DNA of 64,000 nt from a virus. A program made the position numbers and the translations under genes. Below the pieces are notes generated by a model. The model ran no database searches, was not told the DNA's origin, and worked only from the letters and a program-made list of their open reading frames with translations. The number at the start of each line of letters is the position of its first letter. Within the stretch, counting starts at the first letter, position 1. Below are positions 4-63,735 of this stretch, piece after piece. The stretch spans positions 95,665 to 159,664 of IMG/VR virus record IMGVR_UViG_3300017971_000201; one strand, 5' to 3'.

Positions 4-933
4 ATGAGCGAGCTGGAAATCGGTACCGAGGTCTACTGGCACGACAAGAACGGCGTCCGCCAGCGCGGCCGGGTCTGCGCTGACGGCGCCTCTCAGGTGG
101 TCCGGCCCTACGACGCGATCGGCCGGCTCCAGCTCGAGAAGCACGTGCCCGTCAGCCCGCTCATGAAACTCGCGTCAGGTGTCGATCAGCTGGCGGAACT
201 GGCTCCGATCGTCATGCACCTGTCCCACCTGATCGAGCAGTACGAGGGTGGCCGTGGCGCCCCCAAGTCGACCTACTGCGGCGACTGGAAGATCGACATC
301 AGCACCAGGCCGTGGACGCTCCACAGTCCGAAGACCACCGTGGACCCGGTTCGCGTGCACCAGCGCGGGCTCTGCTCCGACGAGCTGTGGAAGAATCTGA
401 TCGAGGACACCGCGCTGGCCCTGGACCGCAGCGACCGCAGCGAGCCGCTCGCGGACCGCGAGCTGCCGGACGAAGCCTACGAGAAGGCCGCCGAGCTGAA
501 GCTGTGCCGTCGCTGCTTCCGCGCGGCGGTGATGGAGCGCACGTGGCCGCTCGAGCCGGCGCGGCTGTCCGAGGAGGCGCTACGCGAGTTCGTGCTCGGC
601 TTCCTCGACGGCAGCGTCTACTCGGATCGGCACATTCCGTCCTGGGAGATGGTGGCTCGGGCTGAATCCCCAGAAGAGATCCAGCGCGCGCAGGAGCGGT
701 GGGGACGGGACACCTCGATGGTCTTCATGTGCCTGATGCTCGGTCCGCCGCCGCCGAAGGACTACGCGGAGAAGGTCGCGGTCGTGTGGGAGTGGTTCAG
801 CAAGGCCGGCCCGCGCTCGATCAACGGAATGCCGGGGTTCTTCTCGCACCACTTCATGCACATCGACGACTGGAAGCGCGCGGCTCCCGCGATCGACCGG
901 GAGCTGGAGCGCCGGCGGGAGTTCGAGATCTAG
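4..933 (+). CDS. hypothetical protein; N-terminal SH3-like barrel followed by the shared tag motif (SGVDQLAELA) and unknown domains
   Basis: 309-aa ORF with phage-like codon usage; ELEIGTEVYW start resembles other SH3-like small genes in the window. Confidence 0.7.
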   Translation: MSELEIGTEVYWHDKNGVRQRGRVCADGASQVVRPYDAIGRLQLEKHVPVSPLMKLASGVDQLAELAPIVMHLSHLIEQYEGGRGAPKSTYCGDWKIDISTRPWTLHSPKTTVDPVRVHQRGLCSDELWKNLIEDTALALDRSDRSEPLADRELPDEAYEKAAELKLCRRCFRAAVMERTWPLEPARLSEEALREFVLGFLDGSVYSDRHIPSWEMVARAESPEEIQRAQERWGRDTSMVFMCLMLGPPPPKDYAEKVAVVWEWFSKAGPRSINGMPGFFSHHFMHIDDWKRAAPAIDRELERRREFEI

Positions 934-940
934 GAGAGCC

Positions 941-949
941 GGGTAGAAC
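941..949 (+). promoter_or_regulatory. GGGTAGAAC promoter box upstream of cas12
   Basis: Same motif precedes >20 gene starts in the window; AGGAGG RBS at 962-967 then GTG at 974. Confidence 0.65.
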
Positions 950-973
950 GTCGATGCGACCAGGAGGCGAAGC

Positions 974-2938
974 GTGGGAGCAGCGCGAAGACGAAACCCC
1001 AAGGTAGCCGCAGCCAGGAAAGGGAAGCCGCCGCCCAAGGCCACCGGCAACTGCCGGAACTACAGGTACGGCGCGCACGAGCCGATCGCCAATCTGGACA
1101 AGGTGCTCGATGAGATGCGCGGTGCTCACGACCTGCGCAACGTGCTGACGTGCATCAACCGAGCCCGAAGCGAGATGATCACGGCCGCGCTCGGCGAGCA
1201 CCAGTCGTACAAGAAAGCCACTGCTGATCTGGCGGCTCTGCACCAGCGGCGCGACAAACTGGAGGCGCAGATCCGGCAACAGAACAGCGCCAGCCGCAAA
1301 CGGCTGGGGCGACACTCCCCGCTGTCTTCGGAACTCGACACCGTTCGCAAGAGGATCGACGAGGGCAGGACCGCTCTCAAGAAACTCCGCAGGAAGCTCC
1401 TCAAGAAAGACCCCGCGCTGAAAGCGGTTGTCGAGGCCGCTGACGACATGGCGAAGAGGGAGACGACTCGCGCGGAAGATGCCTGCGGGCTCTACTGGTG
1501 CACCCGAAACGAGCAGACCGGCAAACGCGCCAAGCTGCGCCGCTTCAAGAAGTGGCGCGACAGCGAAGCGACCATCAGCGTTCAGATCCCAGGGGGGTTG
1601 ACCGTTGAGCAGCTGCTTGGCGGCGAGAACAACCAAGCGCGCCTGGAGCTGCGCCCGGAAGGCGTATGGGTCCAGGGGGCGAGGAAGCGCAAGGTCGAGC
1701 CGGCCGAGGCCGCGAGGAACAAACTCAGACTCGACGAAGACGGCTACCCCATGCGCAAGCTGGGGACCGCCATCCTGCATCTCCGGTGCATGTCAGACGA
1801 GGACGGCAAGCCGATTTGGGCCGAGGTGCCGATCACCTACCATCGCGAGATCCCCGCCGATGCCAAGATCAAGCGGTGCTACTTGCACCGATTCCGGGTC
1901 GGCAACCGCTACCACTGGTCTGTACGCTTCTCGCTGGAGCGGGGGAAGAAAGGCGACGACTCCTGGCTGCACCCGCGCGTCGCCACGACCGGCACGGCCG
2001 CGATCGACATCGGCTGGCGATGGTTCCCCGATCGCCTACGCGTCGCCGTGTGGGCCGGATCGGACGGAGCCGAGGGCGAGCTGTGCTTGCCCAAGTGGTG
2101 GCTGGACGAGATGTACTCCGTCCGGCTCGACCAGCGGGAGCGCGACGTGCTGTTCAACGAGATCGTATCCCTGGTCCTGCCGTGGTTCCGATCGCGGCGC
2201 GGGGAGCTGTCCGACTACGTCGTACAGGCGATCAAGACGATGCACTCGTGGCGCGACAAGGGAAGGCTGGCCGCGCTCTCCATGCGCTGGCGCGATGATC
2301 TGGCCGCCGATCCGGGCGCCAACCCGGCTCACGTCGCCATGTCCATCCGCCTGGAGGAGTGGCGTAAGCGCGACAAGCACATCTGGTGCGAGGAGGTGAA
2401 CCTCCGCAGCCAGCTCCAGGGCTCGCGCAAGGATCTCTACCGGCGATTTGCCGCGATGCTCACCAGCCGCTACGGCCGAATCGTGGTCGAGGAGTTTGAC
2501 CTGAGTGCGGTCCAGAAGCTCCCGCCGGCCTCGATCGATGACGGCACCTACTCCAGGGTCAAGAGGCACAAGGGAGACGCGGCGTGCTCGCACCTGGTCG
2601 GCGCGCTCAAGGATGCGGCGCGGCAGCTGGACAAGAAGAACCCGAAGTGGACGACCAAGCGGTGCCACGTCTGCGGGAAGACCGAGAGGAAGTGGGAGAA
2701 CCCCGGTGAGCTGGAGCACACGTGCAAGCACTGCGGAGTGCTCTGGGATCGGGACGTGAACGCGGCCCGGAACATTCTCGCCGCGAGCGGCGTGGCGGTT
2801 GACTGGACCCGGCCACCGCTCGCGCCAGCCGCCCGAATGACTTATCCACAGGTAGAGAACCGCGAGATGCGTCGATCGCGGCGCAGGAAGGAGGCGCTCG
2901 AAACGACGCGTGCAAGCGGTGATCGACAGACGGCTTAG
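974..2938 (+). CDS. cas12: type V CRISPR effector, Cas12m (V-U1)-like, RuvC triad intact
   Basis: 654 aa; RuvC-I AIDIGWR (D345), RuvC-II IVVEE (E506), Zn finger CHVC..CKHC, RuvC-III DRDVNAA (D594); N-terminal motifs GLYW, ISVQI, VPITYHREIPADA, KDLYRRFA recall Cas12m; array begins 10 nt after stop. Confidence 0.85.
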   Translation: MGAARRRNPKVAAARKGKPPPKATGNCRNYRYGAHEPIANLDKVLDEMRGAHDLRNVLTCINRARSEMITAALGEHQSYKKATADLAALHQRRDKLEAQIRQQNSASRKRLGRHSPLSSELDTVRKRIDEGRTALKKLRRKLLKKDPALKAVVEAADDMAKRETTRAEDACGLYWCTRNEQTGKRAKLRRFKKWRDSEATISVQIPGGLTVEQLLGGENNQARLELRPEGVWVQGARKRKVEPAEAARNKLRLDEDGYPMRKLGTAILHLRCMSDEDGKPIWAEVPITYHREIPADAKIKRCYLHRFRVGNRYHWSVRFSLERGKKGDDSWLHPRVATTGTAAIDIGWRWFPDRLRVAVWAGSDGAEGELCLPKWWLDEMYSVRLDQRERDVLFNEIVSLVLPWFRSRRGELSDYVVQAIKTMHSWRDKGRLAALSMRWRDDLAADPGANPAHVAMSIRLEEWRKRDKHIWCEEVNLRSQLQGSRKDLYRRFAAMLTSRYGRIVVEEFDLSAVQKLPPASIDDGTYSRVKRHKGDAACSHLVGALKDAARQLDKKNPKWTTKRCHVCGKTERKWENPGELEHTCKHCGVLWDRDVNAARNILAASGVAVDWTRPPLAPAARMTYPQVENREMRRSRRRKEALETTRASGDRQTA

Positions 2939-2948
2939 GAGAGATGCT

Positions 2949-3335
2949 CTCGCGGTCCCATCGGAACGGGTTGTGGTTCCGACAACGTGGACTGGGAACG
3001 CTTCTACAGAGCCTTCGCTCTCGCGGTCCCATCGGAACGGGTTGTGGTTCCGACACGCACCAGAGTCCCTTCCCGGCCCGCCGCGCTCCACTCGCGGTCC
3101 CATCGGAACGGGTTTGTGGTTCCGACACAGGTAAATGCAGGTCCCCAGGTGCTTGTGGCTCGCGGTCCCATCGGAACGGGTTGTGGTTCCGACACAGGTA
3201 AATGCAGGTCCCCAGGTGCTTGTGGCTCGCGGTCCCATCGGAACGGGTTGTGGTTCCGACGTAGCAGAAGTAGTCGCCGATCTCGACCTCCACCACGTCC
3301 TCGCGGTCCCATCGGAACGGGTTTGTGGTTCCGAC
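2949..3335 (+). CRISPR. CRISPR array, 6 repeats / 5 spacers
   Basis: Repeat CTCGCGGTCCCATCGGAACGGGTT(T)GTGGTTCCGAC at 2949, 3020, 3091, 3159, 3226, 3300 (35-36 bp); 3-prime hairpin TCGGAAC/GTTCCGA; spacers 36, 36, 32, 32, 39 bp; spacers 3 and 4 identical. Confidence 0.97.
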
Positions 3336-3469: not shown

Positions 3470-4903
3470 CTAGAGCAAATTGTCCACTTCCACGCGCGCG
3501 AAGAACTCCGCCCGGGTGAGCGTGATCTTGTGGCGCGTACGGACCGCGCGACGGAGGCTCAGGTCATTCGGGTCGATGAAGTTCGGGGTGATCTCCATCG
3601 GGATGTACGGGCTGTAGATGAGCCCGGTGTCGAGGATGCTCGGCCCCTGGTATCCCATGAGGATCTGGTTGGCCGGGAAGAGCGGATCGACGAAGATCAG
3701 CCACTTCCTCTTGAGCACGCCCTGCTTGAGGATCCCGCCCTGGTAGACGTGACCCTCCTCGACGGCCGAGAAGCCATCGATGTTGTCGAGGAGGCTGGCG
3801 ACCTCCGACGACGTGATCGCCCAGTTGCAGGGCGCCCGCTGCGTGCGACGGTGCACGATGTGGGAGGCGCGGGACATGCGGATCACGAGCGACTTGAGGT
3901 GCTCGGGATCGCTGACGCCCGAGGGCGTCGCCCGGTCCCACTTGACGACGGCGATCGGCTCGACGGCGTTGAGCGCGGTACCCGCGATCTCGCGGTCGAT
4001 CTCCGCCACCATCTCGTCGGACATCTGCGCGACCAGGTCGGCGTCGATGTCGCGACCCCACAGCGCGCGGAGGTCGTCCGCCGCCTCGACGCTGGCGAGG
4101 CTCTTGAGCTTGCGGCTCTCGGCCTCGATGCTCTTGATCTGGATGTCCAGCTGGACCTCCGGGATCCGAGCGTTCAGCTCGTTGTCGTAGCGGTACTCGA
4201 CCGTGATGACGTCACCGGACGCCGGCGCGGTGCCGAACGTGAGCGACATCTGGCCCGACGCGTAGTTGACCGTGCCAGCGCCGCCGGCCATCAGCGTGCC
4301 GGCGACGACGGTGAACGCGCCCGCGCCGTTGTCGGTCGCGTTGACGGTACCGTTCACCTTCACGACGACGGTGGCCTGCCGGGGGCGGGGCCACGCGAGG
4401 TTGCGGGAGAAGACGACCGTGCCGCCGTCGCCGGTCCCGAACGGCTCGCCGTCCACGAAGTTGGAGCTGTACCACTTGTTCAGCACCTTGTTCATCTCGG
4501 TCATGGCGGCGACGGAACCCTTGTCCGACGCGTACCGTGGCCGGTAGAACGCGATGCCGCCGATCGGGCCGGTCATCGGCTGGACCGACGCGATCTGCGT
4601 CGCGACCAGGCGGATGGCGGTCCTGCGGATGACGGGCAGGACGTACTTCATGAACGGCCCGACCGAGAGAGCGCGAGTCTCCTCGTTGAGCCGCTTGAGG
4701 TGACGAACCTCCTGCTCGATCATCAGGGCCGTCAGACCCCGCACGTAGTTGACGTGGGCCGGCGCGTAGCCCGGACCCATCTCCTCGTTGAGACCCCGGA
4801 GCATCTTGTGCCACTTGCGCACGTACCGGCTGACGGCCGGCTCGTCCGCGATGGCAGTCGACTCTCCGAGGTTCTCGGCTAACAGTCCTCGAGCCGTGAA
4901 CAT
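3470..4903 (-). CDS. major capsid protein, T4 gp23-like
   Basis: VQPMTGPIGGIAFYRPRY, AESRKLK, AEIDREI, GYQGPSILDTGLIYSPYIP motifs. Confidence 0.95.
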   Translation of the reverse strand: MFTARGLLAENLGESTAIADEPAVSRYVRKWHKMLRGLNEEMGPGYAPAHVNYVRGLTALMIEQEVRHLKRLNEETRALSVGPFMKYVLPVIRRTAIRLVATQIASVQPMTGPIGGIAFYRPRYASDKGSVAAMTEMNKVLNKWYSSNFVDGEPFGTGDGGTVVFSRNLAWPRPRQATVVVKVNGTVNATDNGAGAFTVVAGTLMAGGAGTVNYASGQMSLTFGTAPASGDVITVEYRYDNELNARIPEVQLDIQIKSIEAESRKLKSLASVEAADDLRALWGRDIDADLVAQMSDEMVAEIDREIAGTALNAVEPIAVVKWDRATPSGVSDPEHLKSLVIRMSRASHIVHRRTQRAPCNWAITSSEVASLLDNIDGFSAVEEGHVYQGGILKQGVLKRKWLIFVDPLFPANQILMGYQGPSILDTGLIYSPYIPMEITPNFIDPNDLSLRRAVRTRHKITLTRAEFFARVEVDNLL

Positions 4904-4915: not shown

Positions 4916-7735
4916 CTAGTGCCGGTGCATCCGCCCGGCCAGTCGCTCTTGCTCGACCAGCGACGTCCCCAGGAACGCCAAGTCCTGGGATGCTGCGTCG
5001 CCGGCGAGAAGTTCTGCTTGTTCGCTCTCCTCGAACGCTCGCCGCTCGTCCTCGGTGATGTGCTCGCGGCCGGCGCTCATGGACCTGCGCACGCGCTCCA
5101 TGGGACCGCCGGGCTCCTGCGCCCGGATCTCCGACCGAGACGCGGCGGCGTCGATCTCCCTGGTGGAGGTCAGCTCGTCGTTGCGAACGTCCTCCATGAT
5201 CGACTCACGGTTCGGGTGACCGATCGTCCGGTCGCTCGCGTATGCCAGGAGCTTGGCCCTGGTGCCGGCCGTGACAGCCCGCTCGAGCATGTCGGCCTGC
5301 TCCTCGATCCGCGCCCGCGCGTCCCGGACCTCCTCGTCCTTGCTCTCGAGAGCGGACGTCAGACGCTCCTCCAGGGCCTCGAACCTCTTGGTGACCTCGG
5401 ACCGGTAGCGCTTCTCACGCGCCTCTGCCTGGGCGAGCGCGTACTCGGCCTCGGACGCCCTCTCCTCCGCGAGGCGGATCGCGGTCCCGGCCTCCTCGTT
5501 CGCGGCGGTCTTCGCCGACATCTGTGCTTCCTCGATCGAGGTCAGCGCTGACTCGACTCTTGTCTTCAGCTCCTCGGCGGTGTTGCACGCAGCGATGTCG
5601 CCGATCAGGTCGCGGACGCTCTCTCGATCCTCGCGTCCGCCGATCATCTGCTCCACGTAGAGCTGGAACGCCAGCTGGCGTGTCTTCTCCTCGACGTGCA
5701 CGACGCGAGACTCCGCGTCCTTGGCCTTCTGCTCCTGCTCGTCCGCTGCCCGGGACAGCTCCTCGATCTTGGCATCCTTCTCGTCCAAGACCTTCTTCTC
5801 GTCGGGCGACGGGGCGTAGGGGTTGACCATCTCGGCGATCTTCTTGAGCGCCAGCTTCGCGCCGGCCGTCTCGGGATCGCTCGCGAAGTCGCTGCGGACC
5901 TCCTCCTCGACCTTCGTGCGCATCTCGGCCAGCGCGCGGACGAGCTTGGCCGCGAAGTCCTCGCGCAGCTCGTCGATCGCCTTCTTGTAGATCTCCTCCT
6001 TTTGGGACTCGACCTCACCGTTGATCCGGTCGTCGGTGTCCTCGGCCGCAGTCTCCGAGGCCACCCGCATCGCGTGCTGCTCGATCACGCGAACCGCGTC
6101 CGGGAAGTGCTGGCGCAGCATCGTCTCGGTGACCTCCTTCGGGTCCACCACGAGCTTGCCGGTGGGCTTGCCCTCGCCGTCCGTGTCCTCGGAGATCACG
6201 GACGGATAGGCGTCGTGGCAGGCCGGATCGGCCACGAAGTCCCACGTGTTGAGCTTGAAGTCCTCGCCGACCATGTCCCAGCCCCGGGGGCCGGTGGACG
6301 TGGAGCCCATGCCCCGGCTGGACATGCCGATGGCCGCACCCCGCCGCAGGAACGCGGCGAGGTTGCGACCCGCGTCGGCCTCCTCGACGACCTCGAACTT
6401 GCCGTTGATCGTCCCGTCGTCCTCGATCCAGAGACCGCGAACGATGCAGCCGCCCTCCCGGATCCGGCTGTTGTGGTTGACGGTGAAGTCGCCCAGCAGG
6501 AACCGGCCGTCGCCGTCCAGCTCGAATCCGGCGTAGTCGCCAGTTCCGATGGACGTGACGATGAACCCGGTCCTGAGCGCATCCTTTCGCTGCTCGCGCG
6601 GCTCGGCCTTCTTGCGCTCCAGACGGGTCGGGATCTGCTCCACGTCGCCCCAGATGGTGAGCGTGTGGTAGTCGTCGCTGTAGCCCTGCACCTTGCGCGT
6701 GGAGAGCACGGCCTGGAGGCCGAGCGACTTGGCGATCCGGTGCGCGGCCTGCGCATAGTCGGCGCGCTTCTGGGTGATGTAGAAGCAGTTGTGCTGGAGA
6801 TGACCGTCGGTGTCGATCAGCCCAGCAAGGAACTGGAGACGGGTCTCGCGGCTCCCGCGCACAATCGCGGTCGGGATCTCCACGTTGGTACCCACCATGT
6901 CGCGCATCGCGCGCAGCAGCCGGTTGTCTTGGCCGCGACCGGCGGTCAGGTGGATCGTGACGGCCTCGGTCCCGGTGGTCTTGCGCCACTCGTTCGTGGA
7001 CAGCTCCCACCGTGCGGCGGTGTCCTCGCAGAGCTGCTTGATCTCGTCATCGATGGTCGTGATCGAGATGTCACCAATCCTGGGCGCACCGGCCTTGTTC
7101 TCGCGCAGGGTCTTGCCACCGTCACCGAACCAGACGCCGAGGAAGTAGGGATCGACCTTCGGTTCGGGCAGCTCGTCCTCGAACCGCTCGACGCCGGTGC
7201 TGAACAGCTTGTAGCGGCTCTTGTAGTAGATGCTCTTGTCGAGATAGTCCTCGACCGGGATGTCCACGATCTCGCCGCTGGACGTGTGAACCAGCGTCAG
7301 TACGTGCTTGTCGTTGCAGACCCACGGATCGCCCTTCGCCGGGTCGATCCGGTAGAGCTGGCCGGTGCCGGAGGTTGTCGCCAGCACCGTGCGCGCCTTG
7401 CCGTCCGGCCCCATGAGTCGGTCGCCAGCGACGATCTGCTCGACCGGGAGCACGCGACCGTCGGCCATGAGGACCGGAGTCCCCAGGCCGAGGCACTTGC
7501 CGTCCCCGGGATGGTCGACCGCGCCGATGACGCTCCCCTGCTCGATCCGGGGCTGGAGTCTTCCGATCTCCCTCTCCATGACCGAGCGGGGGTAGACGCG
7601 GTTGTTGGCCGTCGGCTTGTCCACGTGGCCGATCTTGCCTTCGACCACGAGCTTGCCACCGTCCCTCCCTTCGAGGATCTGCATCCTCATGGGCGGACCG
7701 TAGTGGTCGACCAGCACGCGCCTGTTCGTCGTCAT
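4916..7735 (-). CDS. prohead protease (T4 gp21-like) with intein, fused to long acidic coiled-coil scaffold region
   Basis: NNRVYP, GAVDHP, GMSSRGMGS, DFVADPA motifs; intein at aa 81-422; C-terminal about 400 aa helical and E/K/A-rich. Confidence 0.9.
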   Translation of the reverse strand: MTTNRRVLVDHYGPPMRMQILEGRDGGKLVVEGKIGHVDKPTANNRVYPRSVMEREIGRLQPRIEQGSVIGAVDHPGDGKCLGLGTPVLMADGRVLPVEQIVAGDRLMGPDGKARTVLATTSGTGQLYRIDPAKGDPWVCNDKHVLTLVHTSSGEIVDIPVEDYLDKSIYYKSRYKLFSTGVERFEDELPEPKVDPYFLGVWFGDGGKTLRENKAGAPRIGDISITTIDDEIKQLCEDTAARWELSTNEWRKTTGTEAVTIHLTAGRGQDNRLLRAMRDMVGTNVEIPTAIVRGSRETRLQFLAGLIDTDGHLQHNCFYITQKRADYAQAAHRIAKSLGLQAVLSTRKVQGYSDDYHTLTIWGDVEQIPTRLERKKAEPREQRKDALRTGFIVTSIGTGDYAGFELDGDGRFLLGDFTVNHNSRIREGGCIVRGLWIEDDGTINGKFEVVEEADAGRNLAAFLRRGAAIGMSSRGMGSTSTGPRGWDMVGEDFKLNTWDFVADPACHDAYPSVISEDTDGEGKPTGKLVVDPKEVTETMLRQHFPDAVRVIEQHAMRVASETAAEDTDDRINGEVESQKEEIYKKAIDELREDFAAKLVRALAEMRTKVEEEVRSDFASDPETAGAKLALKKIAEMVNPYAPSPDEKKVLDEKDAKIEELSRAADEQEQKAKDAESRVVHVEEKTRQLAFQLYVEQMIGGREDRESVRDLIGDIAACNTAEELKTRVESALTSIEEAQMSAKTAANEEAGTAIRLAEERASEAEYALAQAEAREKRYRSEVTKRFEALEERLTSALESKDEEVRDARARIEEQADMLERAVTAGTRAKLLAYASDRTIGHPNRESIMEDVRNDELTSTREIDAAASRSEIRAQEPGGPMERVRRSMSAGREHITEDERRAFEESEQAELLAGDAASQDLAFLGTSLVEQERLAGRMHRH
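6470..7495 (-). mobile_element. intein with LAGLIDADG homing endonuclease in the prohead protease (342 aa)
   Basis: Starts CLGLGTPVLMADG, ends FTVNHN with +1 Ser; YFLGVWFGDG and FLAGLIDTDG motifs. Confidence 0.93.
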
Positions 7736-9959: not shown

Positions 9960-12900
9960 CTACTGACCGTGGAATCTTCGGGTCATCGCGAGCAGCTCCT
10001 TCCGGGAGAACTTCCCGGATGGCGGAGCGGACATGCTGCCGCCGTTGGTTCGGCGCAGCAGGCCACGGACCTCCTCGAAGAACGCGCGCCGCTCGTGCTC
10101 GCGCCTGGCGAAGCCTTTGTCGCCCTCCAACAGACGATTGAGCTTGTCCGAGATCTCGGAGTGCCGGCGGCTCGACTCCCTGTACTTCCATTCCTCGAGA
10201 CGTCGCTCGTAGTCGTAGCGCTTCCACTCCTCTGGCGTCGGTTTCTTCCCCTTGCCGACCGCCGGGGCCTTGGGCTTGGGCGACGGCTTGGGCGCCGGCT
10301 TAGGGGTTCCCTCCTCCTCCTCCGGCGGCGCTTTCTCTGGCGCCTCCTCCGGCGGAGCCTCCTCCGGCTCTTCCTCCCCGCCCGGCGGCGGGGCCTCTGG
10401 CGGCCCGCCCTGGCCGCCGCCCATCGCGTAGCTGGGCAGATCGCCGGCCTGCTCCTCCTCGGAGTCCTTCTTCTGTTGCTTCTCGATCTCCTTGATCTCC
10501 TCCTCGGAGAACTTGAGGATGTTCTCCTGGATCCAGCGGGTGCTCACCCACGGCTGAATCCGGCTCGCGTAGTCAGCTGCCGCGTTCATGGTCTCGTAGG
10601 CCGCCAGCTCCCAGATCCCCGAGGGCACGGTCATCTCGATCGTGAACTCGGGCTTCCAGGGATCGCGCACGCCGCGAGCGGCCAGGTGCGTGCGAATGAC
10701 CCTCTCCCAGCCGATCTTCAGCTCGCGCTGGAGATTCAGGGTCACCCGGGCCGCGCGAACGTCGTCGTTCGACAGAATCGACTTCGACGGCGGGGCCTCG
10801 TCCTTGCCCAGGTAGGCGCGCGGGACCTTCAGTGTCGCGTGGAGCATCTGCTTGAAGTACTCGACATCATCGACGGCCTGGTAGTCCGGGCCGGAGAGGA
10901 CGTCCACCCTGGCCAGCTCGCGGCCCTCGCGAACGGCGATGAAGAAGTCCTCGTCACGGGCGAGAGGGTTGTAGCGGAGATCCAGCCGGCCGGATCGGGG
11001 GTTGACCATCCGCTTCTTCTTGAGGTCCCGCTTCGCCTTCTGAAGGAATGCGCCGACCTGGTCGGACGGGATGTCGGTCGTGTCGATGTAGTAGGCGTAA
11101 CGAGCTGGCGCGCGCGTGTTGTGCACCACGCACCCGTCCGCGACGAAGTTGTGCTCGTCGGCCTCGACACCGATGTCATAGATGTCATCTGTCTCGATTT
11201 CCTCGACGCCGCGAATCACCTCTGTCTTCGCCTGGGGCTTGAAGGAGACGTCCAAGCAATAGGACGTGCTGGTCGGAAGCGGCTTGCTGGAGCCTTTGAT
11301 CGTTCGACCGCCCGCTCGCGTACGAGACCAAACGAAGGTGGCGACCAGCCCGAGTTGCATGGCCAGCTCGCGCACATCCTCCAACAGCTGCTTGTTGCAC
11401 ATCTCGAAGCGAGCGCGCTCGTAGCGCGTCTTCCTTCCCTCCTTGCGGGGCTTGATGTGTGCGTCCGCGTCGGCAAGCCCTCGGATCATGGCCAGCTTGA
11501 GCTTGGGATGCGCTCGGAAGATCCACTCCGGCAGACGCTTGTGGTGGGCGCCGGGGACGAACCCGTTGAGCGTCATGAACTCAGCGAACTTGCCGGAAAC
11601 GATCGTGTAGGCGCCTAGCCGGTGGCCGGTATCGCCGACCAGCTTGACTGGCGCATATTTCTCGAAGAGAGCCTTGTACTGCTCGTTGATGTCCTGGTGC
11701 GCCCCAAGCGCGAACCCGGTCTCGTTCTGAGCAACGTGAGCCTCAGAGTGACCTGGGCGCAGCTTATGAGTGCGGGTGGCGACGAACCCGTCCCCGAGCA
11801 TGAACCCCCACCACCGCGCGAAATCCGCGTCGGCGGTTTCCGGGACCGTGATCCCTGTAACAGGAGTGCCGCGCTCACCGCCCCAGTGCTCCTCGATCTC
11901 CAGATGCTCTGGGCCGTGACCGTTGGCTTCCAGCAACGCTACGGCAGTATCGGTCTTGAGGTCATAGTCGCCGGCGAAGAAGTCGCGTGCCCGGCAGTGA
12001 TGCACACCGACCTGCTTCGCAATCTTGGGGTAGGGCATGGTCCGCTCGACAGCCCCGACGAGTCGCGCCTTGCTGTGGAGCTGCGGCCTTTCGAGGTAGA
12101 TCTCCTCCCAGTCGTCTTCGTTCTTGGAAGGGGTGACGAACCTGTGCACGCCAGGCTCAAGGTTCTGGACCTCCACGTAGTCCAGCCGGCGGATCTGGGG
12201 AATACCCTTGCCCCGGCCGACAACCGTCTCGACCAGAACAGGGTGCGTCCTGTTGGCGAAGATCTCCCTGTGGTCGCTGAAGACGCGGAAGATCTTGTCC
12301 TGGCCGTTGTGCTTCTTGTAGACGACCTTCGTCTTCTTCAGCCGGTGATCGTTGCCCGGATCGGTGTAGGAGTAGACCTCATCTCCCTCCTGTAGATCCT
12401 TGATTGCCTTACGGCCGTCTGGCGTCCAGATCTGAGAGTCTCCGCGCAAGCAGAGCTTGTAGATCAAGACCGAGTCCTCGAGCATCACCAGCCGCTTCCA
12501 GATCCAGCGAGCGCCCTCAGCGACCGAGACGCCGTAAGGCGACCGCCGCCGCGTCGCGCGCAGGCGGAAGTGGGCAACCTGCCAGTCCTCGAACAGGGCG
12601 AGACTCCTGGGGATCTCGACGTTGCCGGCGAGCATCCGCCGCAGCTCTTGGCTGTTCGCGGTGAACTGGCCGGTGACGTCCTGCACGAAGCCGATCAGAC
12701 CGCCGTCCAGACGCTCGACCCGGCGCATCGTGGGAACCGGGAGCGTATTGGTCCCGACGATCCCGTTCTCGGTAATGAGCAGCTCGAGGTAGTCGTTGCC
12801 CATCATCCCGAGGCCGTAAGCCTGTGGCCAGATCTCGTCCTCGACCCGCAGGATCCGGTGCATCAGGTCATTGCCCAGGCCCTTGAGAGCGTCGTCCTCC

Positions 12901-13202
12901 GACATGACCCAGATGCAGCGGCCGTCCTTGACCGAAGGCTGGGTCGCGTCGTTGGCAAAGTAGTGGAAGGCGCTGTTGATGTCCGGGTACTCCTCCATCG
13001 CCTCGTAGTCGGCAAACCGATCCATGAGCGACTGGGAGACGGTGAGCAGACCGCCGATGTCCTCGCGCCCCCAGACCGTGAACATGCTCGGCACGTGGTG
13101 ACGCATCGCCGCGACAGACGGAGAGTCGGCCTTGGCCCGCTCCTCCTGTGGAGCGCCGAATACGTTTCGGAGCGCCTTGACCGCCCTATCACGGAGGGCC
13201 AT
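9960..13202 (-). CDS. portal protein (T4 gp20-like) with intein
   Basis: LEDSVLIYKL/TRAPARYAYYID (gp20 EDA.VIYRITRAP motif split by intein), EDFFIA, DDVEYF, LKVPRAYL. Confidence 0.93.
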   Translation of the reverse strand: MALRDRAVKALRNVFGAPQEERAKADSPSVAAMRHHVPSMFTVWGREDIGGLLTVSQSLMDRFADYEAMEEYPDINSAFHYFANDATQPSVKDGRCIWVMSEDDALKGLGNDLMHRILRVEDEIWPQAYGLGMMGNDYLELLITENGIVGTNTLPVPTMRRVERLDGGLIGFVQDVTGQFTANSQELRRMLAGNVEIPRSLALFEDWQVAHFRLRATRRRSPYGVSVAEGARWIWKRLVMLEDSVLIYKLCLRGDSQIWTPDGRKAIKDLQEGDEVYSYTDPGNDHRLKKTKVVYKKHNGQDKIFRVFSDHREIFANRTHPVLVETVVGRGKGIPQIRRLDYVEVQNLEPGVHRFVTPSKNEDDWEEIYLERPQLHSKARLVGAVERTMPYPKIAKQVGVHHCRARDFFAGDYDLKTDTAVALLEANGHGPEHLEIEEHWGGERGTPVTGITVPETADADFARWWGFMLGDGFVATRTHKLRPGHSEAHVAQNETGFALGAHQDINEQYKALFEKYAPVKLVGDTGHRLGAYTIVSGKFAEFMTLNGFVPGAHHKRLPEWIFRAHPKLKLAMIRGLADADAHIKPRKEGRKTRYERARFEMCNKQLLEDVRELAMQLGLVATFVWSRTRAGGRTIKGSSKPLPTSTSYCLDVSFKPQAKTEVIRGVEEIETDDIYDIGVEADEHNFVADGCVVHNTRAPARYAYYIDTTDIPSDQVGAFLQKAKRDLKKKRMVNPRSGRLDLRYNPLARDEDFFIAVREGRELARVDVLSGPDYQAVDDVEYFKQMLHATLKVPRAYLGKDEAPPSKSILSNDDVRAARVTLNLQRELKIGWERVIRTHLAARGVRDPWKPEFTIEMTVPSGIWELAAYETMNAAADYASRIQPWVSTRWIQENILKFSEEEIKEIEKQQKKDSEEEQAGDLPSYAMGGGQGGPPEAPPPGGEEEPEEAPPEEAPEKAPPEEEEGTPKPAPKPSPKPKAPAVGKGKKPTPEEWKRYDYERRLEEWKYRESSRRHSEISDKLNRLLEGDKGFARREHERRAFFEEVRGLLRRTNGGSMSAPPSGKFSRKELLAMTRRFHGQ
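11118..12452 (-). mobile_element. intein with LAGLIDADG homing endonuclease in the portal (445 aa)
   Basis: Starts CLRGDSQIWTPDG, ends NFVADGCVVHN with +1 Thr; WGFMLGDG and MIRGLADADA motifs. Confidence 0.93.
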
Positions 13203-42793: not shown

Positions 42794-42807
42794 GTGTCGT
42801 GCCGGGC

Positions 42808-46948: not shown

Positions 46949-47175
46949 AGCGCGGCGACCGGGTAGAGATCTTCGAGGGTCTCCCGAGCACACGCGGCCT
47001 GCGCGGGACGGTCTTCGGGGTCGGCCCCATGGGCACGTTCGTGAACATCCTGCCGGACCAGTGGGACCGGAAGCTGTGCGGCATCCCGATCGATCACGTT
47101 CGCGCGATCTCGGCCGTCGAGCAGCTCGGTGACCTGGCGCGCAGTAGCATCCGGCTGGGAGGGCAACCGTGCTGA
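46945..47175 (+). CDS. SH3-like small protein with tag
   Basis: MKRGDRVEI...SAVEQLGDLA. Confidence 0.65.
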   Translation: MKRGDRVEIFEGLPSTRGLRGTVFGVGPMGTFVNILPDQWDRKLCGIPIDHVRAISAVEQLGDLARSSIRLGGQPC

Positions 47176-48323: not shown

Positions 48324-48707
48324 TTACGCGCGGGCGCGCTCTTCCTTCTTATGAACCCCTTCCCGCGCAATTTTAGCCCCCAACGGATTGTCCACCGCCG
48401 GCCCCTCGAGCGGATCCCTGTAGACCCTCCACCGCTGATTGATCAGAGACCTCCACTCCCGCCACTCCCTCCACTCGCGCACGCGTCTGGCCGCCTCGCC
48501 CTCCGGGTCCGCGATGGCGGCGAGCTGATCGACCGCGCTCGGCTCCTCGAATCGGCGGGCGTGCCTGGACATGATGCTCTTGCGCAGGGAGAAGTCGTTC
48601 GGATCGACTGTGGTCGCGGGAACCTCGGGGATGTAGGGCGCGAAGATGTAGCCGGGGCTCAGTCCGGTCTCTCCATCGGCCGGTCGTCCGTTCTGGTCCG
48701 CGATCAC
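48324..48707 (-). CDS. major-capsid C-terminal-like peptide fused to tag
   Basis: GYIFAPYIP...VDPNDFSLRKSIMSRH vs MCP GLIYSPYIP...IDPNDLSLRRAVRTRH; EPSAVDQLAAIA. Confidence 0.75.
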   Translation of the reverse strand: MIADQNGRPADGETGLSPGYIFAPYIPEVPATTVDPNDFSLRKSIMSRHARRFEEPSAVDQLAAIADPEGEAARRVREWREWREWRSLINQRWRVYRDPLEGPAVDNPLGAKIAREGVHKKEERARA

Positions 48708-53779: not shown

Positions 53780-54615
53780 GCCACCGTCGTGGTGGCACCG
53801 ACCTCGAAAAGCAGTGCTCAAGCAGCTCGGCCTGGCCGGTCCTGGCGCCCTAACGTCTTGGCCCCCAATGCAACTGCCACCATGATGGTGGCACCGGACG
53901 GGACCTCGACCAGTCGACGGGACCTGGTCGCGGGGGGTATCAGCTCGCTCGAGTACCCGGCGGCCGGTGCCACCATGATGGTGGCACTGGGCACAGATCG
54001 TCGACCTAGAGTCGCCCACCTCGGCCGGCCGGCGGCGGGCTGCCCGCTAGGGGCCTGCGTAACCCCCGCCGGGCCAGGCCGCCTGCCACCACGATGGTGG
54101 CACCGGAGATCGATGTGACCTGATTGGTGGTAGGCCGTGGATACGGCCCCATGGCTACTAGCTCTGCACGATGAAGCACCAACGGCCGACGTGAAACCCG
54201 CTTGGTTGCTGGCCTCCAGCCGTGTCACATCTTCGGCCGGCCGACATGGTCGTTAGCGCACCCGCCAACGGCAATCGGATCCCAGTGCCACCACGATGGT
54301 GGCAGCGGCCGGCGCGGCGAAGCTCACTAGTTCGTACTCGACCGACCGGCAGCACCCGCCACTGAGCGGGCTCGGGGCCGCGTCGCACCACGGGGCTGTA
54401 CGGGCCTCCTCGAGCCGATTCGGATGGGCAGGTATCAGGCATCGAGTTTTGAAAATGGGGCCGCCAGAGTGCCCGCTAGAAGCATGTATGGGGGCGCGGA
54501 GGGGGCGCGGAGGGGGCGTGTGGGCCATAAGTCATAATCAGACCGTGCGGGTGCCACCACCATGCTGGCATCCGTGCGGGTTCCGTTAGGCTCCGGTGCC
54601 ACCACCATGGTGGCA
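53780..54615. repeat. array of seven 19-bp palindromes TGCCACC-N5-GGTGGCA
   Basis: Copies at 53780, 53875, 53968, 54084, 54286, 54552, 54597 in non-coding DNA. Confidence 0.9.
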
Positions 54616-54888: not shown

Positions 54889-55131
54889 TCATTCGCCCGG
54901 CGGAGGCAGCCCCTCCTCGAAGAATTCCTCCAGCTCCCGCCGCCGCGCCTCGTAGACGGCCAGGCGGGCCGCGATCGTGAGGTCGGAGACGGCCGCCAGC
55001 CGCTCGATCGCCGAGGGCGTCTGGTACCCCTGCCGGGCCAGGTGAGCATCCACGGCGCGCGCGATCTTCTCCGCCCGCTCCTCCGGGGTCCGGGAGAACA
55101 TGGGGGCGGTGGGCGGCTGGCGCGTCTTCAT
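54889..55131 (-). CDS. hypothetical protein with tag
   Basis: PSAIERLAAVS. Confidence 0.55.
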   Translation of the reverse strand: MKTRQPPTAPMFSRTPEERAEKIARAVDAHLARQGYQTPSAIERLAAVSDLTIAARLAVYEARRRELEEFFEEGLPPPGE

Positions 55132-55706
55132 CGGCCGGCCGCCTTGTCGATCTCGCTCCTGAGCGTGCGGATCGCGCGCTCTCGGGCGGGGCCGCCGCCG
55201 TCCGCCTCGAAGAACTTGGTCAGCCCACTCACCAGGGCGTCGTACGCCTCGACCCGCTCCCGGGCCGCTGGGTCTGCCACGGCCGCGAGGCGCTCGACCG
55301 CGCTCGGGGGCTCGCCGCACTTCTGTCGGATGAGCTGCTTGGCGATCGGGCCGGCGTTCAGGACCGGGCCTGGCTCCCATGGCCGGCGTGGGTCCGGCGG
55401 GCCGATGAACAGGGGCGGTCGGTCAGCGCCGCCCCCGCTCATGTGCCCTTCCAGATCACGCCGGCGTCCTCGGGAAGCAGGTCGCCCAGCCGCGCGCTCG
55501 TGGATGGCCGCGAGGGCGTCGATCGCCGAAGCGGGCTCCAGCTCCCAGGCTTGCCGGATGAGGGGATCGGACCGGGTGAGGAGCCGCACCAACACCACCC
55601 CGGTCTCGTCGAGGTCGGGCCGCCACTCCCTCTCGTCTGAGATCACGAACCCGATCGTCCCGCACCGGGTTCGGACGGCCGCGCCACGTTGGAAGTGCTC
55701 GGTCAG
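55128..55706 (-). CDS. SH3-like protein with two tag copies (possible CTG start at 55706)
   Basis: SAIDALAAI and PSAVERLAAVA. Confidence 0.55.
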   Translation of the reverse strand: MTEHFQRGAAVRTRCGTIGFVISDEREWRPDLDETGVVLVRLLTRSDPLIRQAWELEPASAIDALAAIHERAAGRPASRGRRRDLEGHMSGGGADRPPLFIGPPDPRRPWEPGPVLNAGPIAKQLIRQKCGEPPSAVERLAAVADPAARERVEAYDALVSGLTKFFEADGGGPARERAIRTLRSEIDKAAGR

Positions 55707-55987
55707 CGCTGCCCCTCCTCGTGTTGGCCGAGCAAGCTATCCAGCGTCTCCATCATCGCGTCGTGAGCCACCAGATGTGCCCGGAGACCGTCGTCCGCTA
55801 CAGCCGATACACGCTCGATCGCAGACGGCTCGCTCTTCCCCATGGCCTCTCGAAGCGACAGCAGTCGGCCGAAGAAAATAGGAAACTCGGTACCGCAGAA
55901 CGGGCACGCTGTGAGGTCGTCGGTGTCCTCTGGCTCAAACGCCCTGAAGCGCTTGTTGCAGTGCGGACAGGTCACGGTGATGATCAC
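55703..55987 (-). CDS. Zn-ribbon protein with tag
   Basis: CPHC..CPFCG; PSAIERVSAVA. Confidence 0.6.
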   Translation of the reverse strand: MIITVTCPHCNKRFRAFEPEDTDDLTACPFCGTEFPIFFGRLLSLREAMGKSEPSAIERVSAVADDGLRAHLVAHDAMMETLDSLLGQHEEGQR

Positions 55988-56196
55988 GAGTCGCGCTCCT
56001 CGTGTAGCCTCGCCAGCTGGTCCACGGCCGGCTCGGGCTCCAGCCGCCACGTGTTGGTCACGAACCTGGCGCCATCATCGAGACAGACGAACCATCCCGA
56101 ACAGGTGGGGCGCGACGCGTCCGCCATGATCATGCCGGGCCGGCGCTTGCGCTTGCCGTACAGCTCCCGGTAGACGATCCGATCGCCGGGCTTCAT
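55984..56196 (-). CDS. SH3-like small protein with tag
   Basis: MKPGDRIVY...PAVDQLARL. Confidence 0.65.
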   Translation of the reverse strand: MKPGDRIVYRELYGKRKRRPGMIMADASRPTCSGWFVCLDDGARFVTNTWRLEPEPAVDQLARLHEERDS

Positions 56197-56450
56197 GGGC
56201 CGCTCCTCGCGATCTCGGCCAGCGCATCGACCGCCGACACCTCCCGCAGCTCGCTCTCGTAGAACCACTGGGCCTCGCCGCCGGTCAGCCGCCGCACCCA
56301 GGCCCACTTCTCGCCCGTGCCCTTCTCCCAGCCGCGATCCTCGGGCTCGTGGCCGACTCTCTCGATACGGACCAGGTTGCCGACGTAGCCGCGCACGCTC
56401 ATCGCGCTGGCGCGAACGACTCGGTAGACACGGCCCGGCTTGAGCTTCAT
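56193..56450 (-). CDS. SH3-like small protein with tag
   Basis: MKLKPGRVYRV...SAVDALAEIA. Confidence 0.65.
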   Translation of the reverse strand: MKLKPGRVYRVVRASAMSVRGYVGNLVRIERVGHEPEDRGWEKGTGEKWAWVRRLTGGEAQWFYESELREVSAVDALAEIARSGP

Positions 56451-56655
56451 GGCCACCCCGCGAACACGCGCTTGACGCAGTGGTAGCAGGTCGGCCGGCC
56501 TTCCGCCGTCTCGGTGATGCGCCACACGTGGCTGCACAGGGACAGCCGCCACGTGGGGTCGGCCCGGTCCTCCTCGGTGCCCTCCCGATCGTCGGGCGGC
56601 CGGATGATGTGCCAGACGGTGCTCGTGGGGCCGCGTCCGATCACATGGCCGCCGC

Positions 56656-57021
56656 TCACGACAGCTCTCCCAGGTCGGTCACCACGTCGCGCATGTCGGC
56701 CAGCTCGTCGATGATCCGGCGGGCGTGCTCCTTGGTGATCTCCTCGGCGGTCAGCTCCATGAGGCGCATCTGCGCGAGGGTGTACGCCTCGGGATGACGG
56801 GCCGCGACCCAGCTGAGGATCTCGGCCAGCGAGTCCCGGCCCCGGTTGACCGCGCCGATCGCGATCTTCGTCGCCTCGTCGAGGTCGGCAGGCACGGGCA
56901 CAGGGGGGCGCTTGACCCGCGCGACTAGGACCGCGTCCTCGGCCATGCGCACGACGAATGACAGGTTCACCACCGCATCGGCGAGCCGGTCTCGGTCCTC
57001 CTCGGTCGGCCGGCGGATCAC
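56656..57021 (-). CDS. hypothetical protein
   Basis: Coupled; ends DVVTDLGEL. Confidence 0.6.
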   Translation of the reverse strand: MIRRPTEEDRDRLADAVVNLSFVVRMAEDAVLVARVKRPPVPVPADLDEATKIAIGAVNRGRDSLAEILSWVAARHPEAYTLAQMRLMELTAEEITKEHARRIIDELADMRDVVTDLGELS

Positions 57022-57314
57022 GGCGACACCAGCCGGGCGAGCTGGTCCACGGCCGACAGTCCTTGGATCTCCCGCCGCACCACCTTGTAGGTCTCGTCGT
57101 CCCGGCCGTTGCGGGTGACCGACCAGCCGTACTGGTGCCAGTGCTCCCGCACCGCCCAGTGCTCGAGCTGGCAGGCTGGGTTCTGCTTGAGGGCCGCGAC
57201 CCGGGCCTCGACGAGCTTGCGGGCCGCCTCGTGGGCCTGCTCCTGGGTCGCCCAGATCTCCACGGTCTGGAGCACCTGGTTCTGGACGGTCCAGACGACA
57301 TCGGACCGCGTCAT
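57018..57314 (-). CDS. hypothetical protein with tag
   Basis: SAVDQLARLV. Confidence 0.65.
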   Translation of the reverse strand: MTRSDVVWTVQNQVLQTVEIWATQEQAHEAARKLVEARVAALKQNPACQLEHWAVREHWHQYGWSVTRNGRDDETYKVVRREIQGLSAVDQLARLVSP

Positions 57315-57664
57315 GCGCTCCCCAGCCGCTCGGCCAGGAGGTCGATGGCAGATGGATCCGTCGTCCCGTGCACCAGGAAGTTGTAGACCGGCAGGAACGT
57401 GCTCTCGTCGGAAGACACGGCCAGCTGCAGTTCCTCGGTCTCGAGCGATGGCTGGTCCGGTGAGCTGCGGAGCACAGCCAAGATGCCGTAGTCGCGCGAG
57501 TGCAGTGCGACCGATCGATCGTTCAGGTAGACCCGGGTCACGTTGTTCCTGCCCGCGCGGATCTCTGCTACGCCGGCGCGCGGCGAGGTCGCCAGCAGCG
57601 TCCGCAGGTGGTCCAGCGCCTGTCTGACCCGCCGGTCGCGCGCGGCGAAGCGTAGCTCGATCAT
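57311..57664 (-). CDS. hypothetical protein with tag
   Basis: PSAIDLLAERL. Confidence 0.6.
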   Translation of the reverse strand: MIELRFAARDRRVRQALDHLRTLLATSPRAGVAEIRAGRNNVTRVYLNDRSVALHSRDYGILAVLRSSPDQPSLETEELQLAVSSDESTFLPVYNFLVHGTTDPSAIDLLAERLGSA

Positions 57665-58043: not shown

Positions 58044-58255
58044 AGCCGACGCAGATCCTTCGACACCCGGCGCGGCAGGTAGCAGTTCTCCTCGTGCTTA
58101 TTGCCGTGCTGCTCGCAGAACGGACAGGCCAACATCCGATCCTTGTGGCGCCAATCGTCGAACTTGATGTAGATCTCCGGGCTGCACTGCGTGTCGTAGT
58201 AGAACCGCCGGTACAGGTTCCGAAAGAAGCGGTAGATCCGATACACGATGCTCAT
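58040..58255 (-). CDS. hypothetical protein
   Basis: Leaderless after TAGAAC; CPFC..H...C. Confidence 0.6.
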   Translation of the reverse strand: MSIVYRIYRFFRNLYRRFYYDTQCSPEIYIKFDDWRHKDRMLACPFCEQHGNKHEENCYLPRRVSKDLRRL

Positions 58256-58572
58256 ACTGTCGTTCTACCCAGCTCGTCGAGCGCCTCTCTCAGACCGTGT
58301 AGCATGGTCGGCTCCTTCCAGAGCGCGGCCAGCTCATCGACGGCCGAGTCCGGGTGACCAAGCACGCGGCGAAGCGCTAGCTCCTCCTTGTGGTAGGGCC
58401 GTAGGTCCCGCGCCTTGCGGATGATCGTCGTGGCGAGCGCCTCGACCATCTGCGCACGAGTCCGTCGGCTGAACTCTCCTTCCTGGGCAGGCTCGTCGAG
58501 CGGACCGTCCTTGATACCGCGCTCGCGGTCGGCGGTCAGGACGAGTTGTTGCGCTACGGTCAGCCGGGGCAT
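58252..58572 (-). CDS. hypothetical protein with tag
   Basis: SAVDELAAL. Confidence 0.55.
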   Translation of the reverse strand: MPRLTVAQQLVLTADRERGIKDGPLDEPAQEGEFSRRTRAQMVEALATTIIRKARDLRPYHKEELALRRVLGHPDSAVDELAALWKEPTMLHGLREALDELGRTTV

Positions 58573-59450: not shown

Positions 59451-59783
59451 TCACGCACCTCCCCACGGTGGTTCCTCGCGCCACGGGGCCGGATCGTCTG
59501 GCGACCCACCCAGCCGGCGCCACTCCATGTCGAGCACCCGCATCACGAACTCGGAGGCGAGCGCGCCGTGCGCGGCGAAGTCCAGCGCCTTGTGCAGGCC
59601 GCGCCGGACGCGAGCCGTCTCGTCTTCACCGGGCGGCTCGGCCACGTGACCCAGCTGATCCACGGCTGACGGCGGCAGCAACTCGCGGATCATCTCCACG
59701 AGCCGAGCGTCGAGCTGGCGGTCAGACCCTTCGCAGAGCAGGGACAGCACCTCGTAGTTTGGCTGCTGCTCCTCGTCGCTCAC
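59451..59783 (-). CDS. hypothetical protein with tag
   Basis: PSAVDQLGHVA. Confidence 0.55.
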   Translation of the reverse strand: MSDEEQQPNYEVLSLLCEGSDRQLDARLVEMIRELLPPSAVDQLGHVAEPPGEDETARVRRGLHKALDFAAHGALASEFVMRVLDMEWRRLGGSPDDPAPWREEPPWGGA

Positions 59784-60037
59784 GCCAACCTCCCCAGCTC
59801 CATCACCGCATCGGGGTAGCGGTAGTCGTCTTCGTTGACCCACTGCTGGTGGCCGCCCGCCCACAGCACCTTCATGCGACGACGCGGGCTCTCTGGTCCA
59901 AACCGCATCGGCCGGTAGGGGATGGTGACGTACGCCACGTACGACTCGTCCGCGCGCAGGCACACGATGTCGCCCTCCTTGAACGAGCGCCGAGTCGGCG
60001 GCCGTTGGCGATTGGCGATGTAGAACGCCCGCTTCAA
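59780..60037 (-). CDS. SH3-like small protein with tag
   Basis: FKEGDIVCL...DAVMELGRLA. Confidence 0.55.
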   Translation of the reverse strand: MKRAFYIANRQRPPTRRSFKEGDIVCLRADESYVAYVTIPYRPMRFGPESPRRRMKVLWAGGHQQWVNEDDYRYPDAVMELGRLA

Positions 60038-62864: not shown

Positions 62865-62883
62865 GCGACCAGACGATGCACCC

Positions 62884-63261
62884 GTGAAGCGCTACTTCCT
62901 GACGGCTCGGATGATCGAGATGAAGGTCGAGCCGCTCGACCTGGAGCCGAAGCCGCGCTTCCGTGACGGCGAGGTCGCGTGGCAGATAGGGCCTGGAGAG
63001 TTCGCCCATCGCCGGCAGCTCGTGCGAGTGCTGGAGACGAAGGTCTATCCCCGCAAGACGGAGGTCCGGCCGCACACCATCTTCGGCGAGGAGGGGCGGA
63101 TCGATTACCGCGTGGAAGCGGCCGAGCGGTGGCGGGACGCACTGGGCAACCTCCAACCAGACGGCTGGTGGTGGTTGCGAGAGGCATGGCTCGAACCGTC
63201 GTCGGCCGTCGACCGCCTCGGGTCTCTGGTCAGCGCTGACGAGGAGGAACCGTGCCGCTGA
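62884..63261 (+). CDS. SH3-like protein with tag
   Basis: RFRDGEVAW...SSAVDRLGSLV. Confidence 0.6.
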   Translation: MKRYFLTARMIEMKVEPLDLEPKPRFRDGEVAWQIGPGEFAHRRQLVRVLETKVYPRKTEVRPHTIFGEEGRIDYRVEAAERWRDALGNLQPDGWWWLREAWLEPSSAVDRLGSLVSADEEEPCR

Positions 63262-63494
63262 CGTACCTCATCGGCGAGCAGGTCTGGGTCGCGGTCGCCA
63301 CGCAGACGGCGCCGGGAAACGTCGCGTGGTGTCGGGGCGAGGTCGTCGAGAACCGGGTGTGGCGCTTTCCTCACCGCGTGTCGGTCGTGTTCCGCTCCTA
63401 CACCGGCGAGAAGGTCCGCGCATCGTTCGGTCACGACGAGATCCGGCCGGTCTCCGCCATCGAACGGCTTGGCGAGGTCGTCCGTGAGACCTAA
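63252..63494 (+). CDS. SH3-like small protein with tag
   Basis: YLIGEQVWV...SAIERLGEVV. Confidence 0.6.
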   Translation: MPLTYLIGEQVWVAVATQTAPGNVAWCRGEVVENRVWRFPHRVSVVFRSYTGEKVRASFGHDEIRPVSAIERLGEVVRET

Positions 63495-63735
63495 GCGCAT
63501 CCGCTGCCATTGCTGCCAACGGCTCATGTCGTTCGTGCCCCACAAGCCTGGCGATGCGATCCGACGACAGCCCCCGAACGCCGGCCACTGCCTGGACTGC
63601 ACGCCAAGGAACAAGCGCCACCAGCCGACGCGGAGATGGCGCAACGGCGAGCCGGTGCCCACGTGTGCGCAGCGCGGATGCACGCCAGCGTCGGCCGTGG
63701 ACAAGCTCGCAGCCCTGGGTAGAACGAAGGCATGA
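63469..63735 (+). CDS. Cys-rich protein with tag
   Basis: SAVDKLAALG. Confidence 0.5.
   Translation: MARSSVRPKRIRCHCCQRLMSFVPHKPGDAIRRQPPNAGHCLDCTPRNKRHQPTRRWRNGEPVPTCAQRGCTPASAVDKLAALGRTKA

Follow-up and report, generated by a model that had tools for sequence, protein, structure and literature searches.

The window analysed here, 64,000 nucleotides (nt) of the IMG/VR virus record IMGVR_UViG_3300017971_000201 (positions 95,665 to 159,664), covers the final 64 kb of a 159.7-kb record, which has a GC content of 65% and is about 58% complete. The record belongs to an uncultured giant bacterial virus. The window encodes a T4-type head module (Gp23 capsid protein, S77 protease and T4 portal) and dense operons of small genes, and 43 of its open reading frames (ORFs) contain a short peptide, the tag, with the consensus [S/D]-A-[V/I]-[D/E/T]-x-L-[A/G]-x-[L/V/I]-[A/V]. 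The leucine at position 6 (L6) is near-invariant, and positions 2 and 7 hold small residues. Relatives of the capsid protein are found in IMG/VR at 68–95% identity, and ten larger relative records were compared; G000 denotes the record under study and G001 a complete 275-kb relative, IMGVR_UViG_3300029258_002750. Genes were called with a simple codon-model gene finder of our own; at least four genuine tagged ORFs escaped it, and it lost some small ORFs.

Occurrence and conservation of the tag

A preliminary description of the window had claimed about 40 carriers, in agreement with the 43 found by a refined profile; all 14 of the examples that it quoted are in frame in their ORFs, the numbers given there being ORF low ends. 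The strict pattern has 38 matches in the called proteins of the 159.7-kb record, compared with a mean of 0.41 and a maximum of 2 in 300 shuffles. In a held-out test, a profile trained on the window had 13 genic matches outside it (0.15 in shuffles), compared with 3 in a non-genic frame six times larger than the genic one. Over all six frames there are 57 matches, against 2 in the reversed sequence; antisense matches, for example at window position 18483, were excluded as shadows of real genes. The degenerate pattern has 0–3 matches per genome in five whole unrelated phages, including Bxz1 with a GC content of 65%, and the profile has 0–3 matches per 51–105 genes in stretches of unrelated phages, none of them near a C terminus. 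The head genes and the Cas12, ndk, MazG-like and Nudix genes lack the tag, as described (best scores of at most 8, with a cut-off of 11).

The C-terminal location that had been proposed holds as a bias. The tag lies within the last 25 residues in 27 of the 43 window ORFs and is internal in the remainder, and the same enrichment is seen in G000 (29 of 54, with 9.7 expected), G001 (84 of 129, with 23.0 expected) and G005 (99 of 119, with 23.9 expected). It does not hold as a rule: about one third of the copies, among them a longer two-helix form, lie inside the protein, and this speaks against a classical signal that requires a free C terminus. C-terminal degrons of the SsrA/ClpX or Tsp type have such a free end, whereas in G000 the protein stops at motif position 10 for only 3 of the 54 tags, and 19 tags are 40 residues or more away from the end; the tags of G002 fit better, 11 of 43 being exactly at the C terminus. 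None of the computational outcomes that the preliminary description had named as counting against it, namely equal frequency in shadow frames or in unrelated high-GC phages and lack of positional bias, was observed.

The tag is conserved as protein. Codon entropy at the motif positions is close to genome usage nearly everywhere, and serine at position 1 is encoded by both TCN and AGY. The hexamer GTCGAC is absent from the 239 kb of G005 and G009, which are probably two halves of one phage (61 copies would be expected in G005 alone), an absence that suggests evasion of a SalI-type restriction system possessed by the host. Tags in these two records encode Val-Asp through other codon pairs, whereas G000 and G001 use GTC-GAC. 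Among G000–G001 orthologues, the ratio of non-synonymous to synonymous substitution rates (dN/dS) is 0.19 for tags and 0.41 for bodies at similar dS (0.45 and 0.53), although the apparent conservation is inflated by the selection of tags by score in both genomes. The tag is thus a conserved peptide, and its carriers are real genes under purifying selection.

The N-capped amphipathic helix predicted earlier agrees with these data. Positions 1 and 4 covary reciprocally (S..D/E versus D..T/S; p = 7e-18 in G001), an alternation that is the signature of a helix-capping box, although shared descent among tags may supply part of the signal. The hydrophobic moment is 0.49 versus 0.31, and the helix is slightly acidic (net charge −1.0) with 0.3% aromatic residues. 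An acid is present at position 1 or 4 in about 92–97% of tags, which helix capping explains as well as would an acidic residue that completes the metal site of a vWA domain. No published description of the tag was found in the literature searched, in which coverage of subscription papers was limited, and no PHROGs family model matched more than one of 31 tag segments, these 30-residue queries having low power.

In six records, tagged genes number 54 of 213, 129 of 409, 119 of 271, 41 of 159, 41 of 174 and 43 of 241; the tagged share of genes is 25–44% in close relatives and about 15% in a distant subclade, to which IMGVR_UViG_3300025150_000002 belongs. An unseeded motif search returned S/D-A-V-D/E-x-L-A/G-x-L in G000, G001 and G005, the form D/S-V/P-V-E/D-x-L-A-E-L in G004, and V-L-D-x-L-A-E-I in G002, a record of the distant subclade with a GC content of 58%. 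Other records with 56–57% GC contain a few copies of the G002 type; these fragments cover mostly core-gene regions. In three small-protein families with homologues in both subclades (protease-fragment, L7/L12-like and one unknown), each homologue has the version typical of its lineage; so does a UvsW-like helicase, which is tagged in one and the same variable loop in both. A single reader that co-evolves with the tag would produce just such a concerted change across many unrelated genes, which lends indirect support to one common partner. The gene at 89354 of G009 (stretch L157), with homologues in G002, G003 and G007, encodes a part that by eye resembles the C-terminal domain of ribosomal protein L7/L12, followed by the tag of its lineage.

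Carrier proteins and fragments of virion proteins

With the tag masked, the carriers form 53 families of 54, 129 of 129 (G001) and 106 of 119, in line with the earlier statement that their bodies are unrelated. They are mostly small orphan proteins, and most replication genes are untagged; in G001, 88 of 185 genes at 100–180 kb are tagged, compared with 2 of 63 in the structural block. Gene comparisons show that the tag has been gained repeatedly, including by core enzymes: in an insertion of about 25 residues in the G001 polymerase, in a helicase loop, and as a new C terminus of RNase H.

In the extended form, the tag is followed by D-P and a second helix. About 18 copies occur in the genomes compared, and the AlphaFold2 model comprises two helices (predicted local distance difference test score (pLDDT) of 96). 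A profile of this form matched 128 clusters among 1.84 billion representatives, all of 51–229 residues. Hidden Markov model (HMM) searches with the tag masked matched 32 of the 128 clusters to the clade capsid (23), portal (6) or sheath (3) proteins, with 0 in three shuffles; a regular-expression count of 53 of 128 was set aside because its pattern had been chosen after looking. The capsid pieces in these clusters are spread over capsid residues 20–475. Polymerase-like motifs noted by eye in some clusters were not confirmed by profile search. Among the genomes compared, capsid pieces are present in 9 of 410 tagged versus 0 of 817 untagged small proteins (p = 5e-5).

Where a fragment and its parent gene encode identical residues, the same codon is used at 71 of 140 sites (73 expected), which is the chance rate; the pieces are therefore old and have been kept as peptide. 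In the window, the capsid fragment in ORF 48324–48707 and its own capsid gene use the same codon at 7 of 18 sites (9.7 expected), the synonymous sites being randomised. The portal-like piece in ORF 42187–42441 is weak when taken alone (score 43); its relatives P0085 and P0033 match the portal with E values of 8e-6 and 0.001. One conserved tagged family copies capsid residues ~83–125, a stretch that matches the Gol region of T4 gp23; here, however, it forms a separate tagged mini-gene and is one of several fragments along the capsid protein. Tagged capsid and portal fragments may mark phage epitopes that are recognised by hosts or competing phages.

A second, shortened capsid-protein paralogue of 327 residues, untagged, is encoded in G002 (L044:14136–15116, minus strand); tagged fragments might have originated from a gene of this kind. 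Two other origins were considered for the tag itself and rejected. A cellular source of the extended form disagrees with the length range of all its matches and with the two contigs traced, both of which place it among small tagged genes. The C-terminal helix of the scaffold scores 5.5–5.6 and does not follow the lineage variants.

Possible docking on a common partner and its alternatives

The tag may be a transferable peptide for docking, its short, N-capped and amphipathic helix fitting a groove on one common partner. In this way numerous small accessory proteins, together with a few enzymes, would be brought to a single hub or remodelling machine; the individual jobs would fall to the variable bodies, and the copies of capsid, portal and sheath would act as baits or mimics. 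This account, with its single reader, non-destructive docking and bait function, is put forward tentatively, its chances lying a little below even, and that the fragments serve as baits or decoys is conjecture. That one protein reads the tag in some way, be it for docking, degradation or packaging, is probable. A more elaborate adaptor, in which more than 100 small baits, some of them imitating capsid, portal, sheath and polymerase motifs of the phage itself, would deliver bound targets (for example, host immune sensors) to one phage-encoded remodeller or protease, as eukaryotic F-box proteins do for a single ligase, is doubtful.

Short peptides that are read by one partner are already known in phages. 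T4 gp43, gp33 and gp55 and T7 gp2.5 and gp4 carry C-terminal peptides that dock on the clamp or polymerase, a short motif by which several phage proteins attach to one phage hub; those peptides are, however, acidic/hydrophobic tails at the extreme C terminus of a few replication or transcription proteins, whereas carriers of the tag are mostly small orphans. Eukaryotic F-box and SOCS/BC-box proteins, viral ankyrin-F-box proteins and RXLR/PEXEL proteins likewise combine a variable body with one short common box. This is an analogy of architecture only, with no sequence relationship expected, and we know of no bacterial counterpart of such machinery that is involved. The tag departs from the known phage peptides in position and, if it works as a docking peptide, would do so for many more proteins, being inserted internally and fused to fragments as well. 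What the small orphan genes of large phages do has long been obscure, and finding the reader would place all carriers in one pathway, for which the two lineage variants offer a built-in specificity test.

Among the products of non-structural genes common to both subclades are a MoxR ATPase resembling CobS, a zincin-vWA protein resembling CobT, a DUF2325 protein and an unknown protein of 161 residues. The CobS/CobT-like pair has conserved HExxH and DxSxS motifs. Peptide capture by the vWA protein followed by MoxR action is a common theme of MoxR/vWA pairs (PMC7159879), including those of the NorQ–NorD type, and makes this pair a reasonable candidate. NorD docks through its own last two residues (PMC13036017), whereas the tag needs no free end and lacks an invariant acid. 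Should there be a single reader, the CobS/CobT-like pair is the leading named candidate, albeit one that we consider unlikely; a protein of the host, or a different phage protein, is no less probable. Prediction of a complex of the CobT-like and CobS-like proteins with Mg and the tag gave a score of 0.00, the partner fold being uncertain, and speaks neither for nor against the pair. The conserved 161-residue protein was rejected as reader, having no Atlas match and a model with a pLDDT of 57, on which a fold search was uninformative. For a BRCT protein as reader, a crude, insensitive pattern found no convincing BRCT domain in five genomes.

A cobT-like gene is also present in the cultured Pseudomonas phage nickie (MG018927.1 62001–112000, stretch L214). 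Ten mutually unrelated nickie proteins of 70–292 residues, whose ORFs end at L214 positions 5154, 6029, 21136, 22946, 24036, 24317, 24712, 31513, 31926 and 46187, terminate exactly in a shared tail of about [P/K]-x-D-F-G-x-W-[A/S] (motif score of 107, compared with 62–68 in shuffles). The tail differs from the tag in sequence, and its presence beside a cobT-like gene fits the docking scheme by analogy, as a single case that tests nothing. As a cultured phage with an analogous, different tag, nickie would be a tractable model.

Several observations weigh against docking on this pair or on any one partner, in addition to the inflated conservation noted above. The C termini of the CobT-like and DUF2201 proteins lack the tag motif. 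Position 4 holds T or S rather than an acid in 25 of 31 D1 tags, unlike a fixed ligand of a metal-ion-dependent adhesion site. CobS and CobT are vertically inherited, and their co-occurrence with the tag is therefore weak evidence. The co-change of tags rests on two clearly different subclades and hence on few independent events, and concerted change can also come from recombination among the 3′ ends of genes.

An account without a dedicated reader, in which the helix self-associates, binds membrane weakly or stabilises small proteins and has spread by recombination of gene ends, is unlikely but the most serious of the alternatives. The tag is very short and rich in Ala and Gly, the bodies are tiny and often look disordered, the dense operons with 4-nt overlaps favour shuffling, and the extended form has a second helix behind the first. 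The near-invariant L6 and the small residues at positions 2 and 7 nevertheless fit a shaped groove, folded enzymes have acquired the tag in loops, and synonymous sites are at genome equilibrium. The low aromatic content and negative charge do not suit a membrane-targeting helix, for which the MinD type has a bulky aromatic face and basic charge.

Degradation or remodelling, with the tag sending its carriers or the partners bound by their bodies to an ATP-dependent protease of phage or host, is rather unlikely. The C-terminal bias, the terminal tags of G002 and the one or two phage-encoded MoxR/vWA pairs with zincin motifs would agree with it. The many G000 tags that lie far from the end, with variable tails after the tag, would not, and the destruction of the phage's own tagged polymerase and helicase would be hard to explain.

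The T4 capsid targeting sequence is N-terminal and is carried by few proteins, which enter the virion and are cut by the prohead protease, whereas the tag is C-terminal or internal, is carried by 40–130 genes per record and has also been inserted into enzymes. Like the tag, it is a peptide of about ten residues that otherwise dissimilar small proteins have in common in a phage whose head is of the T4 type, and the internal proteins of T-even phages are diverse defence proteins with only the targeting peptide in common (PMC3012670). A corresponding head-packaging signal, by which small counter-defence proteins would be loaded into the prohead for ejection, would find its T4-type head genes here. 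Packaging is improbable, however, given the location of the tag, more than 100 carriers per genome including replication enzymes, the clustering of carriers with small accessory genes, and the low tag scores of scaffold proteins.

A translated DNA or RNA element (a repeat, a coding insertion element or a coupling signal for the next gene) would account for the insertion-like behaviour in the polymerase and among capsid fragments, and for the commoner Glu at position 8 near the stop codon (42 of 109, compared with 45 of 234), perhaps through an overlapping ribosome-binding site, but is largely refuted and highly improbable in view of the codon usage, the recoding in G005 and G009, the similar dS of tags and bodies, a tag-to-stop distance of 10 to hundreds of codons, and the absence of the tag from the 20 largest direct-repeat families listed.

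Other features of the window and its relatives

Table 1 Tagged ORFs of the window and untagged genes related to them (window positions; ORFs are tagged unless stated otherwise)
ORF	Strand	Tag	Remarks
4–933	+	175	309 residues; internal; kept in G001 orthologue
3470–4903	−		Gp23-type major capsid protein; untagged (score 2.8); PF07068, E 1e-54; source family of fused fragments
9960–13202	−		T4-type portal with intein; untagged (score 2.2); PF07230; source family of fused portal peptides
17749–18606	+	17989	285 residues; Zn-ribbon-like part; internal; weak second copy at 18073
22569–22940	−	22688	39 residues from end
24366–24515	−	24410	14 residues from end
30258–30638	−	30308	
31160–31393	−	31234	
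31375–31653	−	31443	
31650–31868	−	31694	
31825–32157	−	31917	
32225–32575	−	32260	
32478–32843	−	32636	
32840–33295			ndk; untagged, among tagged ORFs of the 30258–33512 (−) cluster
33258–33512	−	33338	
33955–34473	+	34405	
37262–37597	+	37553	Weak
37594–38106	+	38065	
38096–38353	+	38321	
38224–38715	+	38584	Internal
39128–39439	−	39175	
40737–40979	−	40781	
40976–41230	−	41011	
41771–42190	−	41839	
42187–42441	−	42351	Short portal-like peptide (portal residues ~60–89), then two-helix extended tag
42438–42566	−	42473	
42563–42811	−	42595	
46945–47175	+	47110	
47384–47671	+	47636	
47671–48051	+	47785	Internal; weak sheath-like piece
48324–48707	−	48539	Major-capsid-protein fragment (residues ~420–458), then extended tag; HMM independent E value 3e-7
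54889–55131	−	55014	Extended tag
55128–55646	−	55304	Extended tag; further in-frame copy upstream at 55529
55703–55987	−	55825	Extended tag, degenerate
55984–56196	−	56031	
56193–56456	−	56237	
56656–57021	−	56688	
57018–57314	−	57056	
57311–57664	−	57352	
58252–58572	−	58347	
59451–59783	−	59669	
59780–60037	−	59812	
62884–63261	+	63202	
63252–63494	+	63453	
63469–63735	+	63691	
63764–63967	+	63809	

A capsid relative that might place the host was sought in GTDB genomes and none was found; the neighbours of ndk were uninformative in this respect, and CRISPR spacers gave no convincing match to the genomes compared outside the array itself. Syntenic, tagged relatives are present inside the NCBI assemblies GCA_043955405.1 and GCA_012974965.1 (stretches L211 and L212), the taxonomy of which could hint at the host.

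A Cas12m-like effector is encoded at 974–2938 (best PDB match Cas12m, E value of 1e-55), beside a six-repeat array at 2946–3335 in which one spacer is duplicated. According to a preprint of 2026, a Cas12m encoded by a phage was the first of its kind; the window gene would be a further case. The paper on the myxophage MV-1 describes a temperate phage with a Cas12m of 610 residues; it names none of the records compared here and does not contain the word 'motif'.

The prohead protease (4916–7735) and the portal (9960–13202) contain inteins with LAGLIDADG domains, whereas the G001 portal has 633 residues and apparently no intein. A protein of 1630 residues (24907–29799) combines UvrD helicase, 2H phosphoesterase-like and DUF5661 domains and includes a lysine-rich 15-nt repeat at 27262–27411. 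Four copies of a palindromic element with the core TGCCACCAYGATGGTGGCA lie in a gene-poor, GC-rich stretch at 53868–54312 and possibly represent a protein-binding site or an origin or terminus region. ARAGORN calls a tRNA-Arg at 30814–30910, which may be false, on the strand opposite to ORF 30646–31188; this ORF has orthologues in G001 and G005.

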